Assembly: GCA_934660865.1 (NCBI GenBank)
Contig: CAKUIA010000009.1
Location: 60,001 to 92,000 of the forward strand
DNA length: 32,000 nucleotides
Direction: 5' to 3'
From: an uncultured Opitutales bacterium
GTDB lineage: Bacteria > Verrucomicrobiota > Verrucomicrobiia > Opitutales > Intestinicryptomonadaceae
The notes under the pieces were generated by a model. The model did no database searches and was not told the DNA's origin. It worked only from the letters and a program-made list of their open reading frames with translations. Positions within the stretch are counted from its first letter, which is position 1, and every line of letters starts with the position of its first letter. Of this stretch, positions 18,934-32,000 are shown piece after piece. Both the position numbers and the translations under genes were made by a program.

Positions 18934-19010
18934 GGGGTGGTAGTTCAGTTGGTTAGAACGCCTGCCTGTCACGCAGGAGGTCGCGAGTTCGAGTCTCGTC
19001 CATCCCGCCA
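18934..19010 (+). tRNA. tRNA-Asp (anticodon GTC), CCA encoded
   Basis: The 77-nt cloverleaf is readable by eye. The acceptor stem is GGGGTGG / CCATCCC, the D-arm is TAGTTCAGTTGGTTAGAA, the anticodon stem-loop is CCTGC-CTGTCAC-GCAGG, and the T-arm is GCGAGTTCGAGTCTCGT. It ends with discriminator G plus CCA. Confidence 0.95.
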
Positions 19011-19015
19011 CTTTA

Positions 19016-19049
19016 AAAGCCGCAAGTTCAAACACTTGCGGCTTTTTTT
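19016..19049 (+). terminator. Rho-independent terminator after tRNA-Asp
   Basis: The stem is AAAGCCGCAAGT (19016-19027) / ACTTGCGGCTTT (19034-19045), running into a T-tract that ends at 19049. Confidence 0.8.
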
Positions 19050-19173
19050 GTTTCTACATTTCGCGCCAAACCCAGTATCCACGCGGTTTGCGGGGCTGTG
19101 ATGCCGCGCAAAGCCAGTATTTAAGCCACTTGCGGCGGAACGCCCGCCCGCCCAAAAACCGCCAAAATTGGCG

Positions 19174-19257: not shown

Positions 19258-19680
19258 TCAACGTTCGCGGGCGAACATATTTTTGATTCGCGCCCAGAGG
19301 GTGGGGTTAAGCGCGGAGATTCGCTCCAAGTAGATTTCGGCGATTGGCTCTTCAATCTGCGGACATTCGACTTTTACCGCAGCCTCATACGCCGAATAGG
19401 TGTCTTTCGAGAAGGCATTTGCAAGCAAGGCTTGCAATTCTTCGTGCTTTTGGCGCGAAACTTTTACCGTGGGCGTTCCCTTTTTGGGGAACAATGACCT
19501 GTCGAGAAAGTGGTGCTTGTCCGGCGTTGCCAATCCTGCGGCACTTTTGCCGATATAGACTTTTCTCGTTCTAAGCTCGTCTGGAACTTTCGTTCTCTTC
19601 GCCGCCTGTTTTATAAAGGCATCATACGGGTTGTTTGTATCGAACCTGTCCTTGTGCTTGTTGAATGTTGCCAATTTCAT
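19258..19680 (-). CDS. Hypothetical protein (140 aa), gene 4 of the four-gene cassette
   Basis: The ATG at 19680-19678 directly abuts the TAA stop (19683-19681) of the upstream gene. The N-terminal half is basic (KHKDRF...KRTKVPDELRTRK). I recognised no family. Confidence 0.6.
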   Translation of the reverse strand: MKLATFNKHKDRFDTNNPYDAFIKQAAKRTKVPDELRTRKVYIGKSAAGLATPDKHHFLDRSLFPKKGTPTVKVSRQKHEELQALLANAFSKDTYSAYEAAVKVECPQIEEPIAEIYLERISALNPTLWARIKNMFARER

Positions 19681-19899
19681 TTAGTTCCTTTCGTAAGCGA
19701 TTTGCTTTGCCGCCATCAGGCGCGAAACGTGCCGAAACGGCAGCTGAGCGACTCCTTCCATTGCGAAACAAAGTTCGCGGTTTCTGCGGCGGTATGACAT
19801 ATACCTGCCGTCGCGTTTGTATTTTGTGTGGGGGGTATTTTCTTTTTCCATATTTTTTAACATTGCGATAAAATGTGTATCGGTCTCAAAATTTATCAT
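19681..19899 (-). CDS. Hypothetical small basic protein (72 aa), gene 3 of the four-gene cassette
   Basis: The ATG at 19899-19897 overlaps the ATPase TGA stop (19898-19896) as ATGA. An alternative upstream ATG at 19944 would give 87 aa. It has an Arg-rich core (YKRDGRYMSYRRRNRE). Confidence 0.55.
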   Translation of the reverse strand: MINFETDTHFIAMLKNMEKENTPHTKYKRDGRYMSYRRRNRELCFAMEGVAQLPFRHVSRLMAAKQIAYERN

Positions 19900-21320
19900 C
19901 TGCGCGGAGTCCGAGCCAAGGCGTCCCTCAACCCTGCCAAACATTCTCGTTCTACATCGGGTTCTGTGCGCGGATTTCTATGTGGAACGTCCACAAACAG
20001 CCGTTCGAGCTTTACGGCGCAAGGCGTGCAAAAACCGTTCGCCAGCTTGACGAATGCGTATCCCTGCGGCAGATTTTCGGGCGAAGTAAATTCCTCGCGC
20101 GGTTCTGTATCGTCAGCATTGAAGCCGATGTTTGGGCGCGGAGGCGGAGCATATGCCGCGAACTCTACAAGTTTGGCGGCTTCGGGCTCGGACGTTCTAA
20201 ACACGAAAAGGTTGTTGATGTTTGCGAGCAGATGGGCGCGTTCCCTTTCGCCGATTGCCAAGTCGAGAGCAACAATTCCCTGTGTTGCGGCAATGGCAAA
20301 ACCGCCTTTGCTGCGCATTGTTTGGAGGTTGTAGGAATCGCTTGAAATGTCGCGACCGCCAGTTGCAACAAGCGGGAATTCGTCCATAACAATTCCCGCA
20401 ATGCGGTTGTCGGGAGAGTCGCCGCGAAGCTGTATAGTCCTATAAAATTGGGCTTTCGCGAGTTTCGCCACGATTGCCGCCGCAAACTGGTTTGTTGTCG
20501 CGGGAAATGTCAGAACGACAATCTTCCCGAACTTTGCGGTGTCTCCGATATCCAAAAGCTTTTTGCCGCTTAAAAAGTTTCGGGTTGTCCGATTTTCGAG
20601 AAGCGCGAGTGTGTTTGTCATAGTGCTTATCTCGTTGCTTTTCGTGCGCGAATCGAGCTTTTGCCACTCCGACAGGTCGGATTTTAGCCGCTTTGCAATG
20701 CGCTTTATCTGCGCCCAAGCCGCGTTTTTTCTCGATTTGTCAACGGCTTCGCGCCGGCAGATTTCGGGCAAAGCGGAAGAGATGAAATCCCGCCATTCGT
20801 CGATTTTGTCCGAATCCAAAAAATCCCGAAACGAATCGGTGAATTTGTCGAAATCCATCGAATCGTGGCGGAAGAGACAGAAGTTAAAAATTGTATTCAA
20901 ACGCTTGCGGAACGCCATTGTCCAATACACGTTTTCGCCGCTGTTGTCGCCGAATGCGGACATCAGGAAATCTACAAGTTCCGAAACTTTCGCGGACGAG
21001 TCCGCTTCGGCAAAAGGATTGATGTAGTAGTGTCCGTCGCCCGAGAAGTCCACAACATCGCGCATTCTGCCGCATTCGTGCGCCCACTTTTTGATTTTGC
21101 AAAGCGTACCGTCGTTTTTGAAATCGAAGAGCAACAAGCCTATTTTCCGCCTCTTGTCGTCTGCGCGAAAGGCAATCAGCCCGCGCAATAGGGCGTTTAG
21201 CGATGTTGTTTTGCCGCTGCCCGTGCTGCCGATAAAAAGCGTGTGCTTGCAAAGGGTGTCGGCGGTCAGGACGATTTCCCTACCGCCGCCGTTTAGCTTT
21301 GTTATAATTTCGTCTTTCAT
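19896..21320 (-). CDS. TrwB/TraD/VirD4-type (FtsK-HerA superfamily) P-loop ATPase lacking an N-terminal membrane anchor, gene 2 of the four-gene cassette
   Basis: 474 aa from the ATG at 21320; the track start at 21392 is TTG. Walker A is HTLFIGSTGSGKTT (GSTGSGKT encoded at nt 21230-21207). It also has LLLFDFKNDG, YINPF, Walker B GIVMDEFP and RSKGGFAIAATQGIVALD. The order matches the coupling-protein nucleotide-binding domain, and no hydrophobic N-terminus is present. Confidence 0.7.
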   Translation of the reverse strand: MKDEIITKLNGGGREIVLTADTLCKHTLFIGSTGSGKTTSLNALLRGLIAFRADDKRRKIGLLLFDFKNDGTLCKIKKWAHECGRMRDVVDFSGDGHYYINPFAEADSSAKVSELVDFLMSAFGDNSGENVYWTMAFRKRLNTIFNFCLFRHDSMDFDKFTDSFRDFLDSDKIDEWRDFISSALPEICRREAVDKSRKNAAWAQIKRIAKRLKSDLSEWQKLDSRTKSNEISTMTNTLALLENRTTRNFLSGKKLLDIGDTAKFGKIVVLTFPATTNQFAAAIVAKLAKAQFYRTIQLRGDSPDNRIAGIVMDEFPLVATGGRDISSDSYNLQTMRSKGGFAIAATQGIVALDLAIGERERAHLLANINNLFVFRTSEPEAAKLVEFAAYAPPPRPNIGFNADDTEPREEFTSPENLPQGYAFVKLANGFCTPCAVKLERLFVDVPHRNPRTEPDVERECLAGLRDALARTPRR

Positions 21321-21796
21321 GCGAAAATGCCAATGGGCGTCAAAATTTCCTCGGCAGGCGTTGGACGGTCGTTTCCGAATCGTGCCCGCCAAAGCCTTGC
21401 CAACTCTTCCCTTGCTTCGAGGTCGTAGGCGTTCTCGAATATTTCGCGGAACTTCTCCCTCGTTATCCTCCCGAAAACGCCTTTCTCTTCAAGAACGGGA
21501 AGAAGGCTGTTTTCCACCATTACAACTTCCGCCCAGACATCGTCGGGAAGCGTCAGTCTTCGCCAAAGCGGTTTTTCGAAATTCCGCTCCGCAAACAAAA
21601 GTGCCGCGATATCCGTTTGGGGTATTTGGTATCCGTCCGAAACAATCCGCCCGAACGCCTCGTAGACCAAAGGATTTAGGCGCAAAAACATTACGGGCAA
21701 AAGCGAATGTTTCTTGATAAACGCGAGTATTTCCCCGTTCAGCGCGCCTTCGTTTTTGTCAATCATTTCAAGTAGTTTTAGATATAATTTATTCAT
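21317..21796 (-). CDS. Hypothetical protein (159 aa), gene 1 of the four-gene cassette
   Basis: The start is an ATG at 21796. Its TGA stop (21319-21317) overlaps the ATPase ATG as ATGA. It looks helical and I recognised no motif. Confidence 0.6.
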   Translation of the reverse strand: MNKLYLKLLEMIDKNEGALNGEILAFIKKHSLLPVMFLRLNPLVYEAFGRIVSDGYQIPQTDIAALLFAERNFEKPLWRRLTLPDDVWAEVVMVENSLLPVLEEKGVFGRITREKFREIFENAYDLEAREELARLWRARFGNDRPTPAEEILTPIGIFA

Positions 21797-21829
21797 ACAA
21801 ACCTTTCGTTGAGTTAAAATGGTTTGTAT
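21795..21829 (-). promoter_or_regulatory. 9-bp perfect inverted repeat covering the start codon of the first cassette gene
   Basis: On the + strand, ATACAAACC (21795-21803) pairs with GGTTTGTAT (21821-21829) around a 17-nt loop. In the minus-strand mRNA the 3' arm contains the AU of the AUG at 21796-21794. Confidence 0.5.
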
Positions 21830-22006
21830 TTGCGTCTAAAAATTTACCTGAACTAAGTTTGACATGCTGCGAAATATTCTTCCATAGTCGATAAAATTGC
21901 ATTTAACTGCAAAATTACAGAGTGTAGACGATTATTTTACAAAAAAACACTTGCAAAATAATATTTTATAGCCGATTATTTTGCAAATATTGAATATTTT
22001 TAGGTT

Positions 22007-23278
22007 ATGGACGAATATTTTGCAGGCATAGAGAAATTTAACTTTTGGGGAGATAATCCGCCCGATTTGGGATTTTCGCGCAAATTTTATCTCGAAAAAA
22101 TAGCGGCGTATTCGGAGAGCAAATTGATAAAGGTTCTCGTCGGGCAAAGGAGGGTCGGCAAAAGCTACATTCTGCGGCAAATACTTTTTTCACTCGTAAA
22201 AAGCGGACTTCCAAAAGAGAACACCCTTTACATAAACCGCGAATACGCCGAGTTCGGCTTCATAGAAAGCGCGGAGGATTTGGAGCGCGTCTTTGCCGAA
22301 TATAAAAAGCGGATGTCTCCGAAAGGCAAAATCGCCATGTTCATCGACGAAATACAGAACATAAACGGCTGGGAAAAATTCGTGAATTCGCACTCGCAGG
22401 ATTTTACCGAAGAATGCGATATCTACATAAGCGGCTCGAATTCTAAAATGCTTTCGGGGGAGCTTGCGACGTTGCTTTCGGGGCGATATATCCAGTTCGA
22501 GATTCTGCCGTATTCGTTTGTAGAGTTTGCCGAGGTAAACGGACTTTCCGCCGATAGGCAGGCGTATTTGAAATACCTTGCAACGGGCGGGCTTCCCGCT
22601 CTTACAACGCTTCCGACCGAGGAAAGCCGACGCAACTATGTAGACGCGTTAAAAGACACCGTGTTGTTGCGCGACATCGTGCAACGATACAATATAAAAG
22701 ACCCGAATCTGCTGGAAAATCTTTTCGCGTTTGCCGTAAACAATTCGTCGTCGCTGATTTCAATCGGCGGCATCGTCAAATACTACAAAGGCAAAAATAA
22801 GGCGACGACCTACGAAACCGTTTCGTCATACTTGGAATATATGCAAAATTCGTATATTTTGCACAAAGTTGATAGATTTGATATGCGCGGCAAGGAAGTA
22901 TTGTCGGGCAAAAGCAAATACTACCTCAACGATTCCGCCTTTCACAACTACCTTTTTGCAGGCGTTGGCTACGGGATAGGATACCAGCTCGAAAACCTGG
23001 TTTATCTCGAATTGCGCAGGCTCGGCTTCGATGTTTTTGTGGGGACTACGAGGACAAAGGAAGTAGATTTCGTGGCGAAGAAAAGCGACCGTGTTGTTTA
23101 CATTCAAAGCTGTTATTTGCTATCCGACGAAGAAACCGCCAAACGCGAATACTCGGCGTTGGAGTCGATTCACGACAACTACGAAAAATACGTTGTTTCG
23201 CTCGACGATGTAAAAATGCCGAACCGCGGCGGGATAATCCACCTGCGCGCGTGGGAGCTGCAAGACGCGCTCAAATAG
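22007..23278 (+). CDS. AAA_14 / DUF4143-type ATPase
   Basis: 423 aa. Walker A is LVGQRRVGKSY and Walker B is IAMFIDEIQ. The C-terminal region (KEVDFVAKKSDRVVYIQSCY) has the layout of the DUF4143 nuclease-like module. This architecture is common in accessory regions. Confidence 0.8.
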   Translation: MDEYFAGIEKFNFWGDNPPDLGFSRKFYLEKIAAYSESKLIKVLVGQRRVGKSYILRQILFSLVKSGLPKENTLYINREYAEFGFIESAEDLERVFAEYKKRMSPKGKIAMFIDEIQNINGWEKFVNSHSQDFTEECDIYISGSNSKMLSGELATLLSGRYIQFEILPYSFVEFAEVNGLSADRQAYLKYLATGGLPALTTLPTEESRRNYVDALKDTVLLRDIVQRYNIKDPNLLENLFAFAVNNSSSLISIGGIVKYYKGKNKATTYETVSSYLEYMQNSYILHKVDRFDMRGKEVLSGKSKYYLNDSAFHNYLFAGVGYGIGYQLENLVYLELRRLGFDVFVGTTRTKEVDFVAKKSDRVVYIQSCYLLSDEETAKREYSALESIHDNYEKYVVSLDDVKMPNRGGIIHLRAWELQDALK

Positions 23279-23280
23279 CG

Positions 23281-24219
23281 TTATTTTGCCTTGGCGGTTT
23301 CTTTTTCCAAAGCTTTCTTATTTTCGCGCTCTTCGTCGGCTGTCTGCCTTTTTAGGATTGTGCGCAAAGTTTCTTCGCTGTCCACATCGTCGGAGAATTC
23401 TTTGCAAACGTCGTCGAATTCTGCGGAACTATACTCTTTAACGAAGCTGTCGCGGAACTTTTTCAACGCCTGCTCAGGCGTATGATTTTTTCGGTCATAT
23501 AATGCGAAAAAATGGTGTTCGTATTTGCTGCGTTCGGTAATGTCGTCCCTGCCGTCGTTCGAGTCTGAAATGCAATTAGGGTGGCACGCAAAGACAACGG
23601 CGATATATTTGCCGACGTTGCCGTTGTATTTTTGAAATTCTACATTGCGGACAACCAGCCCGTAGCGTCGGCGCGGAAGCTTTGTTCGCTTGTCGGTTGG
23701 AACAATTTTGCGCCGAAGCGGAATTTTAAAATCCCTTTTCAGAATGCGCGTAATCGAAGAGGGCGGATATATCGCCTTTCTGTCTTCGGATTGCGTTTTA
23801 TCGGCGGGCTGTTTTGATTTCACGCTTTGAGGTTTGCGCCTTTGCTTTTTTGAAGTCCATTTGTATCTGCACCCGCAAATGTCGTCGCGGCATTTATTGA
23901 GCTCGCCGCAGATTTTCGAGCGCGTTTGAATTTCACCCGAGGTGAGGCAGTCCAAAATTAGTTCGTTGCGGGCGTTCAAGTTCGACGCCGGCGGCCGTCC
24001 GCGCCCGCAATACGGTATGTCAGCGTAAAGCCTATGCACTTCTTCGGCTGAATCGAAATCCCCTTCTTCGCGGATTATTTTTAGCATTCTGCGAATATGC
24101 GCAGGCTTGATTGGCGAATCTTCCAACTCGAGTTTTCGATACGCATACCCGACGGAGCAATCCCCCAGCGATTTCAGTGCGTCGTACGTTTTCTCGAAAA
24201 TTGTTGCATTTGAAGCCAT
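23281..24219 (-). CDS. Hypothetical basic protein with an AT-hook-like GRGRPP motif (312 aa)
   Basis: ATG start at 24219. It contains PYCGRGRPPASN (an RGRP core), a Cys cluster (KICGELNKCRDDICGCRYKW), Lys/Arg-rich linkers and an acidic C-terminal tail. I recognised no family. Confidence 0.6.
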   Translation of the reverse strand: MASNATIFEKTYDALKSLGDCSVGYAYRKLELEDSPIKPAHIRRMLKIIREEGDFDSAEEVHRLYADIPYCGRGRPPASNLNARNELILDCLTSGEIQTRSKICGELNKCRDDICGCRYKWTSKKQRRKPQSVKSKQPADKTQSEDRKAIYPPSSITRILKRDFKIPLRRKIVPTDKRTKLPRRRYGLVVRNVEFQKYNGNVGKYIAVVFACHPNCISDSNDGRDDITERSKYEHHFFALYDRKNHTPEQALKKFRDSFVKEYSSAEFDDVCKEFSDDVDSEETLRTILKRQTADEERENKKALEKETAKAK

Positions 24220-24239
24220 TTGATATTTTATATAAACAT

Positions 24240-26654
24240 ATGTTAGACGAACTGAAATTCAAAGCTTTTTTACAAGAAACCCTCAATCGGGCACCCGATG
24301 ACGACCAAATGGCGGTTCTTCGCGAAATCGCGCGGGTGGCCGAGTCAAATGAGGCTTTGAATTATTTTAGGGTTGGCGCAAGCGCGGGCTCGGGAAAAAC
24401 CACACTGATTTTATTTGCCTATGCCCTGCTCAGAAAATTTTGCGGAGTCCACAGTAATCAAATCGTAATTCTTACGCTTAATACACGCATCTCCAACAAG
24501 ATTAACCTCGAAATCAAGGCGATTGAAAACAAACTGGAGGAACCCGAGCTTTCGGACGTTTGCGCATACACATTCCACGCATTTGCCATGAGATTTTTGA
24601 GAAAAGTCTCTATGAAAAAAGGCGACATATTAACAGAAAATGCCAGTGTCTATCATAAAGATGTTTCATATAAGTTCCAGAATTTTATAGGCGAGGAATA
24701 TCTTGACGATGAAAAGTTCCGAAAAGACATCGACAATCTCGATTTTCTTGCACATTCGGAGGCGGACTGTTCGACCGAAAAGTCGAAAAAAGTAATGTTG
24801 TCGGAGAGGCTGTCTGACTTCGGAATTTCGAGCAACGGAGCTGTGCTTCGCGGCGACATTGGCAGGCGTTGCTCGAAGGAATTTCAACAAAACCGCACGC
24901 TGCGCGGGGACTCGTTATTGGACTCGGCGGGGAATCCGCTACCGCAAGCTTTTCAGAAGAGAATCTGCGACATCGCAAACCGCCTTTTCCTTTGGGACAT
25001 AAACTACGACTTAAAAATTTGCGACGCCCGTGCGATAATTTCGATTATCGACAACTCTGACTTTGGACAAAACCGGTCTGCCGAATCGGCAAGGCGAAAA
25101 TCGTATATTGAAATCGTTGACGGAGACCAAGACGACAATATGTTTTACGGATCGCTTTTGGTAAACGGCAAGTTTTTGAAATCTTTGCCGACGCAACCTA
25201 CGCCCGAAGATTGGCTAAAGTTTTCGCCCGAAGAAACGCCGTCTGACATCGCCGAATTGAGGGAATTTTGCAACGAATGCAATGCCAATACGGAAGGGCA
25301 GAAAATTAAAGACCTTTCCGGCCTCACATACATCGGCAAGGACGAACTATCGAAGTTCCTAATGGAAATAATAGAACGGCTGAGAGCCGAAGGGAAGATA
25401 AGCGTTGTGCCCAAATCCGGCAGTATGGACGTAAAGACATATGTGGATAAAATATTAAAAAAGTATTCGTCGTCGAATGGTAATGTAGAATCGGGAAGTA
25501 ATTTAATCGGAGGAAGCGTAAAAACGCGCGCACAAATCGAATCTTTTTTCAATATCCTATCTACTACGTTGTGCGAACTCATTGACGTAAACTTCGAAAC
25601 ATTTTCAGCTGTTATGGAAAAGGCGGTCGGAAAAAGTCCGTTGTCGAGTAGGTGCGAAAAAATGCTTAGCAATTTGCGTTTTGTGTTTGTTGACGAAGCT
25701 CAGGATATGAACCGCGTTTTTGTAGACGTTTTAAAAGAAATTAGAAAGTGTGCGCCCGCCGCCAATTTCATAACGGTAGGCGACCCGGCGCAGGCAATTA
25801 ACAGGTTTATCGGCGCACATCCTACGCTGTTTTTGAATTTGGCAAATCCGTCGAAGTCTGTGGACATTCCCAAAGACGGCGCGGATACAGGCGACAACAC
25901 CAACCATACTCCCCAAGGGCAGGAAAACCCGTTCGGTAATTTCAAAGTAAAACGCTTTGAGTTGCCAATCACATATCGAATGGATTTAAAGCTTGTTAAT
26001 GCCGCCAATACTTTCAAAAATTTCAAGCGTGTAAAAAGCGACAATTCAAATTCACCCGACATGCGGCTATTCGGACTTACCATGCGTCCGTGTGCCGGAA
26101 AAACAAGCAATGGGGATATTGAGGTTCACTGCATCGCGCCGAAGGTTATGTCGGAATTTTCAAAAAAGTTCTACGATACGCTTTGCGGGATAATCGAAAA
26201 GGAATTGGCGAAAAATGAAGACGCCGATTTTGCACTGCTAGCCAGAACAAACTTGGTGGATTCGATAGGCGATTTGGAGCTGATTAGACAAAAAACGCTG
26301 TCGCTATTGAAATCGAAAGGCGTAAAACTCTCCCCCGCGAAATTGAGAGCTTCAACCGTCCATAGATACAAGGGCGAAGAAGCCGACTGTGTCGTAATTC
26401 TCGATGCGACGGACAAAAACTATCCGAAACACTTCGATGAAACGGCGGAGAAAATCAAGCAAATCCTCTTCAATGATCCGCCAAGTGCATATTATGACGA
26501 TTCGGTAAACTTGTTCTATGTCGCCATAACGCGAGCCCGACATTCGCTGCACTTCATTTGCAACGACAACCCAAGCGCATTTTTGACGAGGGCGGGAATT
26601 TTGACTGCACGGACACGGCTCAATGAGAGGGAAGCCAGCCAAGACGTCCGCTGA
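24240..26654 (+). CDS. UvrD/Rep/PcrA-like SF1 helicase with a greatly expanded region between motifs Ib and II
   Basis: 804 aa from the ATG at 24240; the track start at 24111 is TTG and would overlap the divergent gene. Motif I is VGASAGSGKTT, TFHAFA lies at about aa 111-116, and motif II is FVFVDEAQDMN at about aa 481-491. Motif III is VGDPAQAINRFIGA, motif IV ITYR, motif V LLARTN and motif VI STVHRYKGEEADCVVILD, followed by LFYVAITRARHSL. Confidence 0.85.
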   Translation: MLDELKFKAFLQETLNRAPDDDQMAVLREIARVAESNEALNYFRVGASAGSGKTTLILFAYALLRKFCGVHSNQIVILTLNTRISNKINLEIKAIENKLEEPELSDVCAYTFHAFAMRFLRKVSMKKGDILTENASVYHKDVSYKFQNFIGEEYLDDEKFRKDIDNLDFLAHSEADCSTEKSKKVMLSERLSDFGISSNGAVLRGDIGRRCSKEFQQNRTLRGDSLLDSAGNPLPQAFQKRICDIANRLFLWDINYDLKICDARAIISIIDNSDFGQNRSAESARRKSYIEIVDGDQDDNMFYGSLLVNGKFLKSLPTQPTPEDWLKFSPEETPSDIAELREFCNECNANTEGQKIKDLSGLTYIGKDELSKFLMEIIERLRAEGKISVVPKSGSMDVKTYVDKILKKYSSSNGNVESGSNLIGGSVKTRAQIESFFNILSTTLCELIDVNFETFSAVMEKAVGKSPLSSRCEKMLSNLRFVFVDEAQDMNRVFVDVLKEIRKCAPAANFITVGDPAQAINRFIGAHPTLFLNLANPSKSVDIPKDGADTGDNTNHTPQGQENPFGNFKVKRFELPITYRMDLKLVNAANTFKNFKRVKSDNSNSPDMRLFGLTMRPCAGKTSNGDIEVHCIAPKVMSEFSKKFYDTLCGIIEKELAKNEDADFALLARTNLVDSIGDLELIRQKTLSLLKSKGVKLSPAKLRASTVHRYKGEEADCVVILDATDKNYPKHFDETAEKIKQILFNDPPSAYYDDSVNLFYVAITRARHSLHFICNDNPSAFLTRAGILTARTRLNEREASQDVR

Positions 26655-27325: not shown

Positions 27326-28720
27326 TTAACGATCAAAATCATAACTACGTTGTGTATCTTGCGTAGGCTGGTTTTGTTGCGTCCTACTTTGCGGTGGCGG
27401 ATACCCTTGTTGTTGTCCGGTCTGTTGTTTTTGAGTTTTCTGCTGTTCCTTTTCGTGGAAGAATTCTTCCAAATCTTTTATGATATACAAAAATAGTACC
27501 ATCATTTTACTACCATTTGGCGAAAGTTTTTTTTCCCACTCCTGCTGAAATTTTTCTAACGTCGAAACATACTGTATATTTCTGAGAGCATCTGACAACA
27601 TGCCCCTAACTTTTGTGCCAGCTTCCGAAATTCGTCTTGTTGTTGTTTTAAGGTTTCTTTCAATTGATAGATTTCCTGGGTGTAGCTTTCCATGATATTC
27701 TCTTCCATCTGATCCATCGATCTGTTTAGCGCCTCCACTTCCCTCGCCAAATCTTTCGCTATTTCCTGAACCCCCTCGCGAAGAATTCCGTGAATCTGCG
27801 ACTTGGGTTTTTTCAACTCGTTCATGAGGATTTCCGCAAACGGCGGAATCATATGATACAGAATTGGCGTTGCTGTTTTTGACATGTTGTCCAATGTTGT
27901 TGCTTTGTTCTGGGTGTTCATAGTTTTTTAAGTATTTATATTTATTTTTAAGACGCGCGTAGCGCGTTTGGGAAAGTTTTTTGTATTGTTCGTCAACATC
28001 TACTCCTTCCGAATCAATCGCACGCGTGTTGTCGTTATTACAAAGATTGCCTGTAAGTTTTATCTTCGTATCTCCCGATTTTACTGTTATCGAAGTGTCG
28101 GTCTTTCGGTTTATGATAAAATTGCTTTGCTTTAAAAACCTTTCGAAATCCTCGCGGTTGTTTATCGCTTTCCCATACTCCGACATCTCATTTTTCAGTC
28201 TGAGGAAAAGCGACTGCTGAGACGAATTCCAATATTTGTTTGCATCGGCAAGTCCCCGCCTGAGCTCGGGCGAATTCGGGTCGGTGAGTTTCGGATATTT
28301 TTTATGGATATAACGCCCGAACGCCTCGAAGTATTTTCTGTCGTATTTATCGAAATAGACCGGGAAATATCTCCCGCCGACACTCTCCGCCGCAACGAAG
28401 TTTAATTCGAAATCGTGCTTGGGATTGTCGTGCAAGATGAACAAGTGTTGAAAGTTCGACTTGTCCATATTTGGATAAACCTTCTCCAGAATGTCGTCCA
28501 TTAACGAAGCAAGAAACTTTGTCCCTCCAAGCTCCGCAAGCGACTTTTTGTCGCGATAGCAGAACGTCACATAGCCCTTCTTTTTGCTGGATTTTTGTTC
28601 GATTTCGCGCATAAAACTGTCATAGCAACCGCCGACAATTGTTGAGGGACGCTTGCGTCCTTTTGAATCTACATCGCCGAGCAAGTACTTTAACGTAGAC
28701 GGTAAATATTCTATAATCAT
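27326..28720 (-). CDS. Putative relaxase / mobilisation nuclease (MobA/VirD2-like, divergent)
   Basis: 464 aa. Its ATG overlaps the mobC stop as ATGA (28720-28717). The N-terminus MIIEYLPSTLKYLLGD... fits the relaxase opening pattern with candidate catalytic Tyr residues. The His-motif position reads ILHDNPKHDFELNFV. The C-terminal tail is Q/P-rich. Confidence 0.55.
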   Translation of the reverse strand: MIIEYLPSTLKYLLGDVDSKGRKRPSTIVGGCYDSFMREIEQKSSKKKGYVTFCYRDKKSLAELGGTKFLASLMDDILEKVYPNMDKSNFQHLFILHDNPKHDFELNFVAAESVGGRYFPVYFDKYDRKYFEAFGRYIHKKYPKLTDPNSPELRRGLADANKYWNSSQQSLFLRLKNEMSEYGKAINNREDFERFLKQSNFIINRKTDTSITVKSGDTKIKLTGNLCNNDNTRAIDSEGVDVDEQYKKLSQTRYARLKNKYKYLKNYEHPEQSNNIGQHVKNSNANSVSYDSAVCGNPHERVEKTQVADSRNSSRGGSGNSERFGEGSGGAKQIDGSDGREYHGKLHPGNLSIERNLKTTTRRISEAGTKVRGMLSDALRNIQYVSTLEKFQQEWEKKLSPNGSKMMVLFLYIIKDLEEFFHEKEQQKTQKQQTGQQQGYPPPQSRTQQNQPTQDTQRSYDFDR

Positions 28721-29169
28721 CTCGAATTCCTTTGTCTTATCTGCGATAGGATTTCTTTGTGTAATTCGGAATTACTTTTTACATATTCCACTATCGCTAA
28801 GCATTCGTCGCCGTTCTCAATTCCGCGGGCGAAATCTTCTATTGCCATAGCCTTACCCAGAATTTTCACAAGCGCAGCCTGTGTGTTTAATATATCGATG
28901 GGGTTCTCGTATTTCAGCGCAAAATTCAGATCTCGCGCAATCTGGTTGAGATTGTTTGAAAGCCTGCTGATTGCCACAATACGCGCATGTTCAATTGTCT
29001 CTTTTTTGACGAAAACAAGATCTCGTATCTTTCCGAGAAAATCCGCAACGGCGTTACGTATAAGCTCGCCGACACTGATTTCCCGCGCCTTCGCCTCCGC
29101 GTTCCATAATTTCTTTTCCTTTTCGGGAACGCGAAATTCCACTCGTTTATCTTTTGTTTCTTTGTCCAT
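28717..29169 (-). CDS. mobC: MobC-family relaxosome accessory protein (RHH N-terminus)
   Basis: It carries the signature ISRLSNNLNQIARDLN (MobC consensus G/SNNLNQIAR.LN). The N-terminal segment RVEFRVPEKEKKLWNAEAKAREISVGELIRNAV is ribbon-helix-helix-like. I prefer the ATG at 29169 because the track start at 29229 is TTG. Confidence 0.8.
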   Translation of the reverse strand: MDKETKDKRVEFRVPEKEKKLWNAEAKAREISVGELIRNAVADFLGKIRDLVFVKKETIEHARIVAISRLSNNLNQIARDLNFALKYENPIDILNTQAALVKILGKAMAIEDFARGIENGDECLAIVEYVKSNSELHKEILSQIRQRNSR

Positions 29170-29245
29170 AATTACAATTTTCCTTAAGAAACGCGTAGCG
29201 TTTTCGGGGGTGTCCAGAGGGGGTGTCAACCACCCTCGGCAAGCT

Positions 29246-29275
29246 GGGGTAATGTCCGTGTACGGACAATTCCCC
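29246..29275. promoter_or_regulatory. Candidate oriT inverted repeat upstream of mobC
   Basis: GGGGTAATGTCCGT-GT-ACGGACAATTCCCC has 14-bp arms with 12/14 complementary positions and a perfect GTCCGT/ACGGAC core. It sits in the 134-bp gap between the 294-aa gene and mobC. Confidence 0.45.
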
Positions 29276-29303
29276 TATGCTTGCACTGCGAAACCCGTGT
29301 TGG

Positions 29304-30188
29304 TTACCTTTCAATATACCCCCCTTCCTGACTTTGTGTTTTGCCTTTTTGAGGTCTCTTTGTCGCCTTGGGAGACTGGGCTTTCAACAACGCCAATGCC
29401 TCCGTCGTTTTTTGGCTGAAAATTCCCAGCGCGATTTCCCAATCGGTAATAATCTGATTCGATTCCGGGGATATGCGTTTTTTCGCCGAATCAATAGCGC
29501 GCTTGTAAAATTTCTGCGCTTTGGTAAATCCGCTGAAAATGTTTTTTACTTTCATCGAACGTGTTTGCTTTACTCCGACAGCTTTCGGTTTCGGCGAAGA
29601 CGTTATCTTTGGAATCTTCGGGATTAGCGTTTTGCATAATTTTGCGATTTGTTTTTCTACGGGGATTGCTTTGTTCGCCACGCTTTTTATTTTCGTATAC
29701 GAAAGCGTTTTGATTCTGCCCAACAACTGCTCGTCTTTTATCGCATCGAAAAGTTTTTTTACCCTCGCACATTTGTAGAATTCGCTACGCGATACGAGAA
29801 ACTTTTTTTCACTCGGGAACATCTCCTGAAATTTTGCGTAGTAGTTGATACTTCCATTCGATTTTCCGTCTGGCGGGACAATCTGCGGATTTTTCTGTAA
29901 AATCCGCAACGTCATTTGCCCCTTGCCCGATTCTACAAAATTCCTGATGCGTTTCCCGCTTTCTCCGAATTCGACAATCGCCTTGGCTAAATCGCCTCCG
30001 TTGTTTTCGAGATATAAATCGATATAAGACTCGATTTCGGCAAAACTTTCCGGAACTACCTTTTGTGAAATGGCATTCTGCTTTGGCGTTGTCGGACACG
30101 TTTCTTCGGCTATTTCCGTCTCGTCGATTTTTGCCGACGGGTCTCTGCCGAATGTATTTTGCATTTCAGGTAAATCTGGTTGTTCCAT
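29304..30188 (-). CDS. Hypothetical protein (294 aa) between xis-like gene and mobC
   Basis: The ATG at 30188 lies 3 nt after the stop of the xis-like gene. The N-terminus is acidic and the C-terminal half is Lys-rich. I recognised no family. Confidence 0.55.
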   Translation of the reverse strand: MEQPDLPEMQNTFGRDPSAKIDETEIAEETCPTTPKQNAISQKVVPESFAEIESYIDLYLENNGGDLAKAIVEFGESGKRIRNFVESGKGQMTLRILQKNPQIVPPDGKSNGSINYYAKFQEMFPSEKKFLVSRSEFYKCARVKKLFDAIKDEQLLGRIKTLSYTKIKSVANKAIPVEKQIAKLCKTLIPKIPKITSSPKPKAVGVKQTRSMKVKNIFSGFTKAQKFYKRAIDSAKKRISPESNQIITDWEIALGIFSQKTTEALALLKAQSPKATKRPQKGKTQSQEGGYIER

Positions 30189-30191
30189 TGT

Positions 30192-30500
30192 CTACCTTTC
30201 CATTTGGGGTTGAACGAAGCGGTGGTCGTATTTAGCTTTGAGAATTTTCTCTACGCGCAATACCTCCGATTTCACATAGGAATGCGGTTTCCCAATGCAC
30301 CGCATTTCGGGATACTTTTTTAGGTATTTCCCGAATGTTCTTCGCGACATTCGCAATATTGCGAGAGTCTGGTGAATGTCTATCAGTTCGACTCCGCAAT
30401 ATTCCGACAATTTTTTGTCGTTTACTTCGGAGGTCGTCCTGATTGTTTGCGCTATTTTAAGTAGCGACTCTATTTCTGCGTCATTTAGTTCTATTATCAT
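30192..30500 (-). CDS. Excisionase-like / HTH_17-type DNA-binding protein
   Basis: 102 aa. IHQTLAILRMSRRTFGKYLKKYPEMRCIGKPHSYVKSEVLRVEKIL follows the MerR/Xis-type HTH pattern (aa.lLgvSrrT.yr..k.g.....g....y....l). It sits directly downstream of the integrase. Confidence 0.55.
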   Translation of the reverse strand: MIIELNDAEIESLLKIAQTIRTTSEVNDKKLSEYCGVELIDIHQTLAILRMSRRTFGKYLKKYPEMRCIGKPHSYVKSEVLRVEKILKAKYDHRFVQPQMER

Positions 30501-30548
30501 TTGTACCTTTTTTTATGATTGTATTCATAAGTTTTACTGGGTAAAAAT

Positions 30549-31748
30549 TTACGCTTTCGAATTTTCCGTTGATTCCTCCGCCAAGCTTTGCGGCGTGATG
30601 GAGAAGAATTTTTCGGCATCTTCAATATTGGCGCTGCCCATATAGTGCTGAGCCAGCGTGGCGTAGCCACGAATGTGCCCCATGTCGGCAACGGTCTTTT
30701 GCGGCCCGAATTTGAAATACGCGTATGTGGCGAACGTATGCCGCAAAACGTCCTGCGAGAGGGCAACCGGCAGCCCGCGCCGCATTTTCCGAAACGTCCA
30801 ATACGAGCCTTTTATTATGTTTCCTTCCCGTTCGTCCTCGGGAACGGTTTCCAGAAACGCCCACAAGTTTTCGGAAACATTTTGAGTGGCGCGCTGCTTG
30901 CGCACTTTCGATGTCTGCCCCTGAATCGTGATAACTTTCGATTTGAAGTTGATGTCCGACCACTGCATAAAACGCTTCTCGAAATTGCCAATCAGTTCCC
31001 CCGGGCGGACTCCGTAAAACGTCATCAGCGCAAAGCCTGCCAGATACTCTTTCGGAACTGATTTCAGCAGAGTTTTGACCTCTTCGACTGACAGAATTTT
31101 CGCAGGCATCGTGTCGCTATACTTGCGCATAAGCGTAACCTCGGCGGCAACGTCTTCCGTAATGTATCCCTCCCGTTTGGCGAACTTGAACAACGCCTTG
31201 ATTACTTTGAGGTTGTTCTTCTGCGAACCGCTCGAACGTATGTAGGATTCGATTTCGCTTTTTAAGATTGTCGCGAAATTTCGAGTTCCATTGAAGTAAG
31301 TGATAAAGCGGACGCGCAGGTATTGGTCGTATTCCTTGAGCGTTTTGTCGCGGAGATTTATGTGCTGGCTGTGTGCCATAAAGTTTCGCACGCAGTCCCG
31401 CACCAATATGACCTTGTTGTATGAATTCAACTCGACGCGCCTGATGGCGTCCTTGATTACAATCTCGGTGGACAGCCCGCGCCTGTGGCATTCCGTGTTG
31501 AGCTTTAAGACGGCCAAACGAACGCCGCTTGGAATTGTCATATCCTCTGGGAGCGAATACTCGCTCCTAAGCGAAATCATAAAAGATTCCGCTTCGCTTT
31601 TGGTCGTAAACGACCTTGATTTTAATTTGCCCGCATCGGGATAAAACACCAAATAAGGCGATTTGCGCCCGTCGCGATACTCCAGTCTAATTGAATTTGT
31701 TTTCATACAAGGGAATGTGTTCCGCGGATAAAATTTCCGCCAAAACAC
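30549..31748 (-). CDS. Tyrosine recombinase / phage-type integrase
   Basis: 399 aa. The catalytic-domain motifs are FYGVRPGEL (box I Arg), DVLRHTFATYA (HxxR), MGH and LAQHY (Tyr). An N-terminal SAM-like/arm-binding region is present. The track start at 31748 is GTG with AAGGGA upstream, and an alternative ATG lies at 31706. Confidence 0.9.
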   Translation of the reverse strand: MFWRKFYPRNTFPCMKTNSIRLEYRDGRKSPYLVFYPDAGKLKSRSFTTKSEAESFMISLRSEYSLPEDMTIPSGVRLAVLKLNTECHRRGLSTEIVIKDAIRRVELNSYNKVILVRDCVRNFMAHSQHINLRDKTLKEYDQYLRVRFITYFNGTRNFATILKSEIESYIRSSGSQKNNLKVIKALFKFAKREGYITEDVAAEVTLMRKYSDTMPAKILSVEEVKTLLKSVPKEYLAGFALMTFYGVRPGELIGNFEKRFMQWSDINFKSKVITIQGQTSKVRKQRATQNVSENLWAFLETVPEDEREGNIIKGSYWTFRKMRRGLPVALSQDVLRHTFATYAYFKFGPQKTVADMGHIRGYATLAQHYMGSANIEDAEKFFSITPQSLAEESTENSKA

Positions 31749-31802
31749 CGAATCCCTTTATACGTGCGTAGCACGTCCCGCGCCCACTCGGGCGCACCCT
31801 CT

Positions 31803-31836
31803 AAAAAACAAAAAGCGGCAAAGTCCCCTTTGCCGC
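31803..31836 (-). terminator. Rho-independent terminator for a minus-strand gene entering from the right
   Basis: The stem is GCGGCAAAG (31815-31823) / CTTTGCCGC (31828-31836). The minus-strand U-tract corresponds to the + strand AAAAAACAAAAA at 31803-31814. Confidence 0.7.
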
Positions 31837-31886
31837 CGATGTTTGTTGTAAGATGCCGTTAAACGCAAAATCCGATTCTATTGTTG

Positions 31887-32000
31887 CTATTTGTTGAACG
31901 GTCTCTTTTTGAATTCGGTCTCGTACTTTAAACGTTCAAGAATATCGCGCATGCTCGATTTATTCGATAAGCAGTTTTCCCATCTGAATTTCAATGTTTT
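31887..32000 (-). CDS. 3' end of an unidentified gene (5' part lies outside the window)
   Basis: The minus-strand frame is open from the window edge and reads ...KTLKFRWENCLSNKSSMRDILERLKYETEFKKRPFNK*. The TAG stop is at 31889-31887 and the terminator above follows. The fragment is too short to assign. Confidence 0.35.
   Translation of the reverse strand, partial: KTLKFRWENCLSNKSSMRDILERLKYETEFKKRPFNK

Follow-up and report, generated by a model that had tools for sequence, protein, structure and literature searches.

The window analyzed here is a stretch of 32,000 nucleotides from an uncultured Opitutales bacterium (assembly GCA_934660865.1, contig CAKUIA010000009.1, positions 60,001 to 92,000), and within it we studied a cassette of four adjoining minus-strand genes that lies in an integrated element and is built around an ATPase with the fold of type IV coupling proteins (T4CPs). 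Gene 1 (21796-21317) encodes an acidic protein of 159 amino acids (aa), with an isoelectric point (pI) of 5.2, which is a candidate adaptor or partner of the ATPase. The ATPase itself is the product of gene 2 (21320-19896), a soluble P-loop protein of 474 aa of the TrwB/VirD4 type without an N-terminal membrane anchor. Genes 3 (19899-19681) and 4 (19680-19258) encode two small, strongly basic proteins, the first of 72 aa (pI 9.9), or possibly of 60 aa if translation begins at Met13 (19863), and the second an orphan of 140 aa (pI 9.7). The junctions between the four genes are, in order, ATGA, ATGA, and a TAA stop directly followed by ATG. An initial annotation, made from the sequence alone, had described four genes with these positions and lengths and two strongly basic partner proteins, and the open reading frames (ORFs) are as it described them.

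We found that all four ORFs are real genes under purifying selection, because their order is kept in 19 loci and because selection is seen in comparisons with two copies of the cassette that are about 90% identical to it (L001 and L002). In these comparisons the ratio of nonsynonymous to synonymous substitution rates (dN/dS) was 0.13 to 0.16 for the ATPase gene, 0.09 to 0.14 for the 140-aa gene, 0.23 to 0.24 for the 159-aa gene, and 0.31 to 0.62 for the 72-aa gene, which offers few sites. Between the window and L001, no other part of the element is as well conserved as the ATPase, 72-aa, and 140-aa genes (91 to 93% identity); the 159-aa gene has 81% and the relaxase module 72 to 79%. The synonymous rate of the 72-aa gene relative to L001 and L002 is about 0.10, three to five times below that of its three neighbors (0.33 to 0.51), which would fit an overlapping constraint, such as an embedded promoter-like motif or an RNA structure. 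Gene 2 begins further upstream in the ORF listing, at a TTG (21392); the length of 474 aa is right, since every homologue has its MK(D/N/E) start where the ATG at 21320 lies.

Both its sequence and its fold make the ATPase a T4CP, and it has no anchor, as the initial annotation had proposed. The motifs named there are present, with most of their residues invariant in the family. Walker A (GSTGSGKT) occupies residues 31-38, after just 30 residues, and Walker B (IVMDEFP) occupies residues 310-316, and the protein also holds LLLFDFKNDG, INPF, and RSKGG..ATQG..LD. Across 22 family members, K37, D313, and E314 are invariant, and G31 to T38 of Walker A and Q347-G348 of ATQG are largely so. The Pfam model TrwB_AAD_bind matches the protein at 6e-11 (42.3 bits; cutoff, 20.5) and T4SS-DNA_transf matches it with 21.0 bits (cutoff, 20.1), accompanied by weak matches to DUF87/HerA and FtsK_SpoIIIE; TraD/VirD4-like matches were also found in NCBIfam, all of them sub-threshold. 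When the 22-member family profile was compared with the PDB, DotL (IcmO) was matched at 5e-7, ahead of DptH and HerA.

The structural comparison gave the same placement. An AlphaFold2 (AF2) model built from the 22-member alignment (mean pLDDT, 79; pTM, 0.79) has helices over residues 109-250, between the Walker motifs, and its top Foldseek matches in the PDB were TrwB-deltaN70, Cag-beta in its complex with CagZ, and DotL, aligned over nearly their full length (about 460 to 520 columns). The TM-scores of these top matches were 0.6 to 0.7, with up to 0.70 for TrwB-deltaN70 (target-normalized), compared with 0.35 to 0.5 for HerA; HerA, NurA-HerA, Sir2-HerA, and DndH-C were all found among the lower-scoring matches. 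The protein therefore has the HerA/FtsK-type Walker arrangement of T4CPs and the TrwB-like fold with its helical insert between the Walker motifs. The N-terminal transmembrane anchor of T4CPs is missing, and the close homologues share the same MK(D/N/E) start without exception. No hydrophobic segment of membrane-helix length is present in any of the four proteins of the cassette, the maximum Kyte-Doolittle mean over 19 residues being at most 1.54 (1.54 in a core beta-strand region of the ATPase, 1.06 in the 159-aa protein, 0.60 in the 72-aa protein, and 0.44 in the 140-aa protein). As an anchor-less coupling-type protein with the TrwB fold, the ATPase thus falls in the described subclass of T4CPs that have no transmembrane domain (TMD) (PMC7434980).

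A search of PLSDB with the ATPase returned weak, partial matches to generic T4CP genes and nothing else, which indicates that this subfamily is not a plasmid T4CP. We also found that the PADLOC model for mad8, a component of the MADS defense system, matches the ATPase at 4e-12, and that the DndH and HerA models match it weakly. The profile hidden Markov models (HMMs) of MADS, mad8 among them, were built from HHpred alignments to PDB homologues, and the mad8 match therefore reports a shared fold only. Membership in MADS (mad1 to mad8) was rejected, with the partners and neighbors of the ATPase matching none of mad1 to mad7 and the mad8 match being generic. Among the more distant relatives of the ATPase, an environmental contig (L028:4008-12581) carries three tandem paralogues (773, 745, and 540 aa) with a PolA-like polymerase and a ClpP-like protease, and in L024 a long-form homologue stands alongside AAA ATPases and a ClpP-like gene; these two loci are a different, uncharacterized context for soluble TrwB-fold ATPases.

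The three partners could not be placed in any family, in agreement with the initial annotation. The 159-, 72-, and 140-aa proteins had no match in Pfam, NCBIfam, PADLOC, or PHROG, and their family profiles had none among all PDB sequences; in these collections no nuclease, Sir2, TIR, or other effector family was matched, nor was any known Tra or relaxosome accessory family. Word-indexed homologue searches with the 140-aa and 159-aa proteins returned close relatives only. An exhaustive profile search with the 140-aa family found only 36 representatives in 1.84 billion clusters, all of about 60 to 180 aa, and no Pfam family recurred across the 20 of these 36 that were scanned singly. By this measure of sequence similarity, the three partners are orphan families confined to a narrow lineage.

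The 140-aa family is the best conserved of the partners, with 53 to 56% identity over the full length (to about 60% locally) where the ATPase has 44%. Its invariant residues are G44, H56, H57, F64, H79, Y98, E105, and R120, within a motif HH...LFP...T...H..L(H/Q)...YE...EC, in which the histidines follow the pattern HH-x21-H-x3-(H/Q). The AF2 model of this protein, made from a shallow alignment, was unusable (pLDDT, 50). The histidine pattern resembles that of HNH nucleases; the tentative idea that the protein is a nuclease of the HNH/beta-beta-alpha-Me kind found no support, as no HNH family or structure was matched and hhalign of the family against a colicin E9 DNase sequence gave a probability of 1% with the motif not aligned. 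In the 72-aa family, the N-terminal half is basic and the C-terminal part carries a conserved motif, LP.xH..RL.A.KQ.AYERN; homologues of the 72-aa protein, of 57 aa in the clade termed B below and 51 aa in clade C, always lie directly upstream of a gene of the 140-aa family. Homologues of the 159-aa protein (171 to 192 aa) lie directly upstream of the ATPase gene in clade B and show no recognizable feature.

Loci for a census were taken from genome contigs, contig look-ups, IMG/VR, and metagenome contigs, and their ORFs were annotated by iterative HMM searches; L009-L017 and L055-L069 were set aside as matching in the P-loop region only or as canonical anchored T4CPs. Co-occurrence of the four families in other genomes had been set beforehand as a test of the cassette, and we found all four genes in the same order in 19 loci, which form two clades. 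Clade A consists of the window, L001, L002, and L033, which are about 90% identical and have the order 159 aa, ATPase, 72 aa, 140 aa. In clade B (L003, L004, L019, L021, L025, L027, L029, L034, L036-L039, L043, L047, and L048; with L005, L006, L035, L044, and L049 as partial loci at contig ends), the ATPase is about 44% identical, and the order is 171 to 192 aa, ATPase of 489 aa, 57 aa, 143 to 173 aa. Genes 3 and 4 abut the ATPase gene in all 19 loci, by an overlap in clade A and with a start 4 nt past the ATPase stop in clade B. A third clade, C (L018, L022, L023, L026, L040-L042, and L045), has an ATPase that is about 43% identical, followed by a 538-aa orphan, a 51-aa gene, and a 149-aa member of the 140-aa family. 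The 538-aa protein was considered as a fused or diverged form of the 159-aa partner and as a paralogue of the ATPase, and it is neither. The ATPase and the small basic gene pair are thus common to all three clades.

The identified hosts are all Opitutales or unclassified Verrucomicrobia, the closest genome matches being metagenome-assembled genomes, and the metagenome matches are from the human gut; the one IMG/VR locus is a clade C island and not a phage. The ATPase ORF is split in two in nine loci, with the flanking partner genes intact, and in three of them (L029, L037, and L043) the split falls at the same place, giving about 131 and 347 aa. Repeated inactivation, a single inactive allele that has spread widely, or assembly error could account for the splits.

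We next consider the company that the cassette keeps. It is always found in integrated elements with integrases, the recombinases being tyrosine integrases or large serine recombinases. In the window, a tRNA-Asp(GTC) (18934..19010, plus strand; ARAGORN), 248 bp from the stop of gene 4, forms the junction between element and chromosome, and upstream of it are chromosomal genes of ordinary kind. A tRNA-Asp also flanks the cassette in L001, L002, and L005, and either tRNA-Asp or tRNA-Val is found at element borders in the census. The integrase of the window, a tyrosine recombinase (30549..31706, minus strand) that matches Pfam Phage_integrase weakly and XerD/XerC-type models of NCBIfam, is 35% identical to the integrase beside the tRNA-Val in L003, and its exact product occurs on 7 contigs.

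A relaxase module lies within 10 kb of the cassette in 16 loci. In the window it comprises a NikA/MobC-like relaxosome accessory protein of 170 aa (28717..29229, minus strand), which matches the Pfam models NikA-like (28.9 bits; cutoff, 27) and MobC (27.4 bits; cutoff, 23.2), as well as RHH_1 and, weakly, NCBIfam MbpA, and a putative relaxase of 464 aa (27326..28720, minus strand), whose gene has an ATGA overlap with the NikA/MobC-like gene and which is assigned by this position only. Homologues of the 464-aa protein (436 to 536 aa) recur across loci, and the 536-aa one follows NikA/MobC in clade C. The family has a conserved N-terminal YLLG (Y12) and LFI.H.NP....ELNF in place of the classical HxH, also seen in L018:6608-8218 and L043:6557-7867; the protein may represent an undescribed relaxase family. 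Clades A and C have the NikA/MobC-like protein and putative relaxase with the cassette, and clade B is mixed, some loci having this pair and others TrwC (1.4e-45). In the compact element L043, an integrase, the 102-aa and 294-aa products, MobC, the putative relaxase, and the cassette all lie within about 8.6 kb, and a mobilization module of clade A type is joined to a clade B cassette. This arrangement shows recombination between modules and places the cassette in the compact backbone.

Within 10 kb of the cassette, none of the annotated loci had a match to any family of type IV secretion systems (T4SSs), and neither had the 13 kb of element sequence in the window. Homologues of the ATPase do not sit in T4SS loci; had they always sat in complete ones, with partners of known Tra or accessory families, the cassette would have been part of ordinary conjugation. 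The features in the window that are those of an integrative mobilizable element (IME) are the tRNA-Asp at one end, the integrase, the NikA/MobC-like protein, and the putative relaxase assigned by position; the far end lies beyond the window.

Upstream of gene 1, we found a 12-nt motif, GGTAAATTTTTA (21837..21848, minus strand), which lies 40 nt before the gene. In 11 loci from clades A and B the motif does not vary and lies 33 to 41 nt upstream of the gene 1 start, within DNA that cannot be aligned between the clades. It belongs to a near-palindrome, which in clade B reads GGTAAA TT TTTACC. The 18.9 kb of host DNA that the window includes has no copy with at most one mismatch. In the whole 32 kb there are two such matches, both in the element, on the coding strand, and 40 to 41 nt before the first gene of an operon. 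The second of these, the one-mismatch copy CGTAAATTTTTA (30553-30542, minus strand), lies 41 nt upstream of the 102-aa ORF, which leads an operon with the 294-aa, NikA/MobC-like, and putative relaxase genes. Judged by its conservation and placement, GGTAAATTTTTA is a probable element-specific promoter or operator, and its presence before both the cassette and the mobilization operon argues for their co-regulation.

The same motif bears on how the cassette is transcribed. A degenerate copy, GATAAATTTTGA (19897-19886, minus strand), overlaps the ATGA between genes 2 and 3, at 22 nt before Met13 of gene 3. Clade B has a further exact copy within the ATPase gene, at its 3' end and 21 nt ahead of the 57-aa gene, whose product aligns from about Met13 of the gene 3 protein. 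The start of gene 3 is therefore uncertain, and the protein is perhaps of 60 aa, since GATAAATTTTGA precedes Met13 and the clade B homologue begins there. In clade C, motif variants are found upstream of the ATPase gene (19 nt) and of the 538-aa gene (33 nt). The initial annotation had read the junctions as one transcript with coupled translation. The junctions are as it stated, and the single transcript was overstated, because a conserved promoter-like motif is internal to the cassette, at gene 3; two transcription units, of genes 1-2 and of genes 3-4, are possible. Two further candidate control elements lie upstream. An inverted repeat (ACAAACC...GGTTTGT; 21795..21829, minus strand) that ends at the gene 1 start codon forms a 5'-leader hairpin, which in L001 and L002 reads GCAAACC...GGTTTGC, a compensatory change from A-U to G-C. 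Between the cassette and the divergent AAA_14 gene are three copies of a 36-nt repeat (21908..22026), each carrying palindromes of the type TGCAAAAT...ATTTTGCA. L001 and L002 retain one copy before the cassette, and these repeats are candidate operators for a regulator.

The remaining genes of the element vary more than the cassette does. Beyond the cassette, the window holds an AAA_14/DUF4143 gene, a gene for a 312-aa unknown protein, a UvrD-like helicase gene, and a gene for a Cro/C1-type helix-turn-helix protein with a further, weak match to the HigA antitoxin model of NCBIfam; further on are the 464-aa protein, the 170-aa NikA/MobC-like protein, a 294-aa unknown protein, the 102-aa ORF, and the tyrosine recombinase. 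Across loci, the cargo includes type I restriction-modification systems, sets of SNF2 and methylase genes, AAA_14, UvrD-like, Fic, and HipBA genes, and giant autotransporters. The AAA_14/DUF4143 gene (22007-23278, plus strand) matches the PADLOC candidate PDC-S01 at 5e-137. It stands beside the cassette in the window, in clade C, and in L029 (L018:8519-9745; L029:7540-8796), and is reduced to its last 27 codons in L001 and L002 (L001:7279-7359); it is a recurrent and dispensable neighbor. The UvrD-like gene (24111-26654, plus strand; 847 aa as listed) has many PADLOC GajB matches but lacks a GajA-like partner. From the TTG listed as its start, the gene would overlap the 312-aa orphan (23281-24219, minus strand) by about 110 nt, and because of this overlap with a gene on the opposite strand translation probably begins further downstream. 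Another recurrent neighbor, directly beside the cassette and on the opposite strand, is a giant autotransporter gene (819 to more than 2700 aa), which in many cases has an integrase gene after it (L004:9945-17410; L019:11944-19274; L018:11466-15316; L025:1-7432; L037:7302-14453; L038:5503-14664). In L004 and L019 the inserted DNA cuts the gene of the 140-aa family short at residue 64, and in L018 it parts the ATPase gene from the downstream trio.

The borders of the element are also of note. It runs past the window end, as L031, which is 100% identical to window positions 27719-32000, continues for 1.3 kb. Beyond the integrase, this extension carries two genes, for products of 243 and 149 aa, the latter an orphan (L031:118-849 and 901-1350; also L030:3-1124), and the 243-aa product looks by eye like an FtsK/SpoIIIE ATPase domain that has lost Walker A and Walker B (IGGDNRFLT, VSITSDY, LIVATSN). 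In one variant contig, a 97-aa gene and a gene for a 567-aa AAA ATPase are inserted between the 243-aa and 149-aa genes and the integrase, and another contig has a different gene there; this spot past the integrase is a second variable site of the element. At the other border, no attachment-site (att) repeat of the 3' end of the tRNA-Asp of 13 nt or more is present in the window, and the sole 12-nt match looks like chance and lies outside the tRNA. The terminator hairpin of the tRNA-Asp (19015-19046) has a partial copy of 74% identity 94 nt into the element (19016-19042 and 19110-19136), and this second copy may be a trace of the integration site.

Taken together, these elements are best explained as a family of integrated, mobilizable elements in gut Opitutales (Verrucomicrobiota). 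For the cassette, the reading that we favor, and to which we give an even chance of being correct, is that it is the backbone mobilization module of an IME, made up of an anchor-less T4CP and novel accessory proteins. The observations that lead to it are the T4CP fold without an anchor, the conserved synteny, the islands with integrases and relaxases and no T4SS nearby, and the shared upstream motif. In this scheme, the ATPase would form a hexameric, TrwB-like soluble coupling protein that receives the relaxase-DNA complex of the element and would pass it on to the secretion channel that a conjugative element in the same host supplies, this second element being presumed to act as helper. The 159-aa protein would be an adaptor or regulator bound to the ATPase, in parallel to CagZ on Cag-beta and to IcmS/IcmW on DotL. 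The 72-aa and 140-aa proteins may be DNA-binding accessory factors that form a separable pair with its own promoter-like motif. IMEs that have their own relaxase and coupling protein and recruit a helper pore are a described strategy (PMC5704250). The suggestion that the cassette is an undescribed system thus held in part. Its gene combination is not a named system, and as an IME mobilization module with its own TMD-less coupling protein, it is of a known kind (PMC5704250, PMC7434980).

Several observations weigh against the mobilization reading. The anchor-less T4CPs that have been described pair with a small membrane protein, and no partner here has a hydrophobic segment. The putative relaxase of 464 aa had no match in Pfam, in NCBIfam, or, by profile search, in the PDB, and no helper T4SS was identified in the hosts within the annotated neighborhoods and the element in the window. 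The relaxase type beside the cassette swaps between TrwC and the NikA/MobC-linked protein while the ATPase stays constant, which would be unusual if the ATPase recognizes a specific relaxosome. Clade C has no homologue of the 159-aa gene, and its 51-aa/149-aa pair is kept from the ATPase gene by the 538-aa gene or by several kilobases; in L018 and L026, 1.6 to 4 kb of DNA, including an integrase gene, lies between the ATPase gene and the 538/51/149-aa trio. Stops or frameshifts interrupt the ATPase ORF in the nine loci with a split gene (L004, L006, L029, L037, L038, L043, L046, L047, and L048), which is consistent with decaying islands, although assembly errors in low-coverage metagenomes may also play a part. 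Longer homologues of the ATPase (700 to 800 aa, 30 to 37% identity; L007, L020, L024, and L028) are in loci free of relaxases, where they adjoin AAA, ClpP-like, and PolA-like genes. Finally, a one-mismatch copy of the 12-nt motif also precedes a SNF2 cargo gene in L003, which indicates that the shared regulation is not specific to transfer.

Some of these points favor a different role, in which the ATPase would be a motor, a soluble hexameric translocase with DNA-binding partners, that acts without a T4SS on the excised circle of its own element, for maintenance or segregation, for control of excision, or for loading into another export route. The four proteins offer neither a membrane anchor nor a membrane partner, no T4SS is near any locus, and in many loci the cassette is at the element edge, by the att site or tRNA or by a recombinase gene. 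The constancy of the cassette under changing relaxase types would also fit, as would the degenerate FtsK-like 243-aa protein that the element encodes past its integrase. We nevertheless regard this role as unlikely, since the fold is nearest to proteins with an established role in delivering substrates to T4SSs and relaxase modules are nearly always nearby. To our knowledge, no known system of this kind that moves its own DNA uses a TrwB-fold protein. A broader form of this view, that the cassette is a self-contained machine independent of any T4SS, either a new system of exclusion or defense against mobile genetic elements or a new route of island DNA processing or export, is in our judgment just as unlikely. 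The same low probability applies to the further proposal that such a machine would occur in no other setting than the mobile elements of Verrucomicrobiota, and that the long-form paralogues beside ClpP-like and PolA-like genes would be relatives doing something similar elsewhere.

It is also conceivable that genes 1-2, for the adaptor and ATPase, and genes 3-4, for the basic pair, are two independent modules that happen to be adjacent and have their own promoters, a view that overlaps the other alternatives. The exact motif 21 nt before gene 3 in clade B and the degenerate copy at the same place in the window point in this direction, as does clade C, where the pair follows the 538-aa gene and, in L018 and L026, lies 4 to 5 kb from the ATPase gene with an integrase gene between them. 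However, the pair was never seen without the ATPase family in the same element, it directly abuts the ATPase gene in 19 loci, and the four genes have diverged between clades to a similar extent. We consider this separation doubtful, below the own-DNA motor in our estimate.

The initial annotation had offered two readings, a coupling module of an IME and a defense or exclusion cassette carried as cargo, and the first is clearly the better supported. The coupling module is preferred because the cassette is conserved as backbone beside integrase and relaxase genes, while the recognized defense genes around it change by locus. As cargo, a HerA/FtsK-superfamily ATPase would sense or move invading DNA, with an orphan such as the His-rich 140-aa protein as the effector, and we rate this as doubtful as the two-module view: the islands are rich in defense genes, the ATPase matches mad8 (4e-12) and, weakly, DndH and HerA, its Foldseek matches include DndH-C and defense HerA complexes, a PDC-S01 gene is a recurrent neighbor, the long-form homologues have no relaxases, and the 140-aa family has invariant HH...H residues, but the other seven MADS genes are absent and the mad8 match is one of shared fold only, T4CPs stand above HerA and DndH in both sequence and structure searches, no partner matches a nuclease, Sir2, TIR, or other effector family, and the HNH idea failed in the hhalign comparison with colicin E9 DNase.

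The mobile elements of Verrucomicrobiota are almost uncharacterized, and the islands described here carry much of the visible defense cargo of gut Opitutales genomes. If the cassette is a coupling module, it would be a case of a T4CP that works without an anchor of its own and without a membrane partner, and its three new accessory families might account for the way in which a parasitic element connects to the secretion channel of another. Its four small genes and the 12-nt motif would then also be a handle for tracking and testing horizontal transfer in a gut lineage that is hard to culture. If the ATPase acts without a T4SS, the known range of TrwB-fold ATPases would be extended.

Several known systems can be compared with the cassette. 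The defense-associated HerA/FtsK ATPases (mad8, the C-terminal domain of DndH/DptH, and Sir2-HerA) share its ATPase superfamily and its setting in defense-rich islands. They differ in that their other components are absent here, T4CPs score better, and the cassette is part of the element backbone. MADS, for example, is an eight-gene operon that includes a methylase, a specificity subunit, and a kinase in addition to mad8. Cag-beta with CagZ in Helicobacter pylori and DotL with IcmS/IcmW/LvgA in Legionella resemble the cassette in that a small soluble partner is encoded with a T4CP, and the 159-aa protein is small and acidic; Cag-beta (8dol) and DotL (6sz9) are also among the top structural matches of the ATPase. 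The Cag-beta and DotL systems, in which the partner is bound to the T4CP, secrete effector proteins through dedicated T4SSs. No sequence similarity between CagZ/IcmS-type adaptors and the cassette partners was detected, and binding of a cassette partner to the ATPase is a prediction by analogy.

The best structural match, TrwB of R388, shares the P-loop nucleotide-binding domain in which a helical region separates the two Walker motifs, and both it and the cassette ATPase are genetically linked to relaxases, which include TrwC in clade B. In contrast to TrwB, the cassette ATPase has no N-terminal transmembrane domain, with Walker A starting at residue 31, shares about 15% identity with it, and is not beside a T4SS, being flanked by three orphan genes instead. 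The Gram-positive plasmid pIP501 is self-transmissible and encodes a T4SS of its own. Its TraJ is, like the cassette ATPase, a soluble coupling ATPase encoded beside small partner genes, and the difference is that the partner of TraJ, TraI, is a small membrane protein, whereas the cassette partners have no hydrophobic segment (PMC7434980). The closest parallel in gene content is with the strategy I IMEs of Guedon et al. (2017), which are streptococcal and have VirD4- or TcpA-type coupling proteins. The elements described here differ from these in being from Verrucomicrobiota, in having a coupling protein of an unrelated subfamily and three orphan partner genes, and in that transfer is here a prediction. 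They share with them an integrase, a relaxase, a relaxosome accessory protein, and a coupling protein, with no genes for a mating pore, and modules are exchanged between elements in both (PMC5704250), as is seen here in L043.

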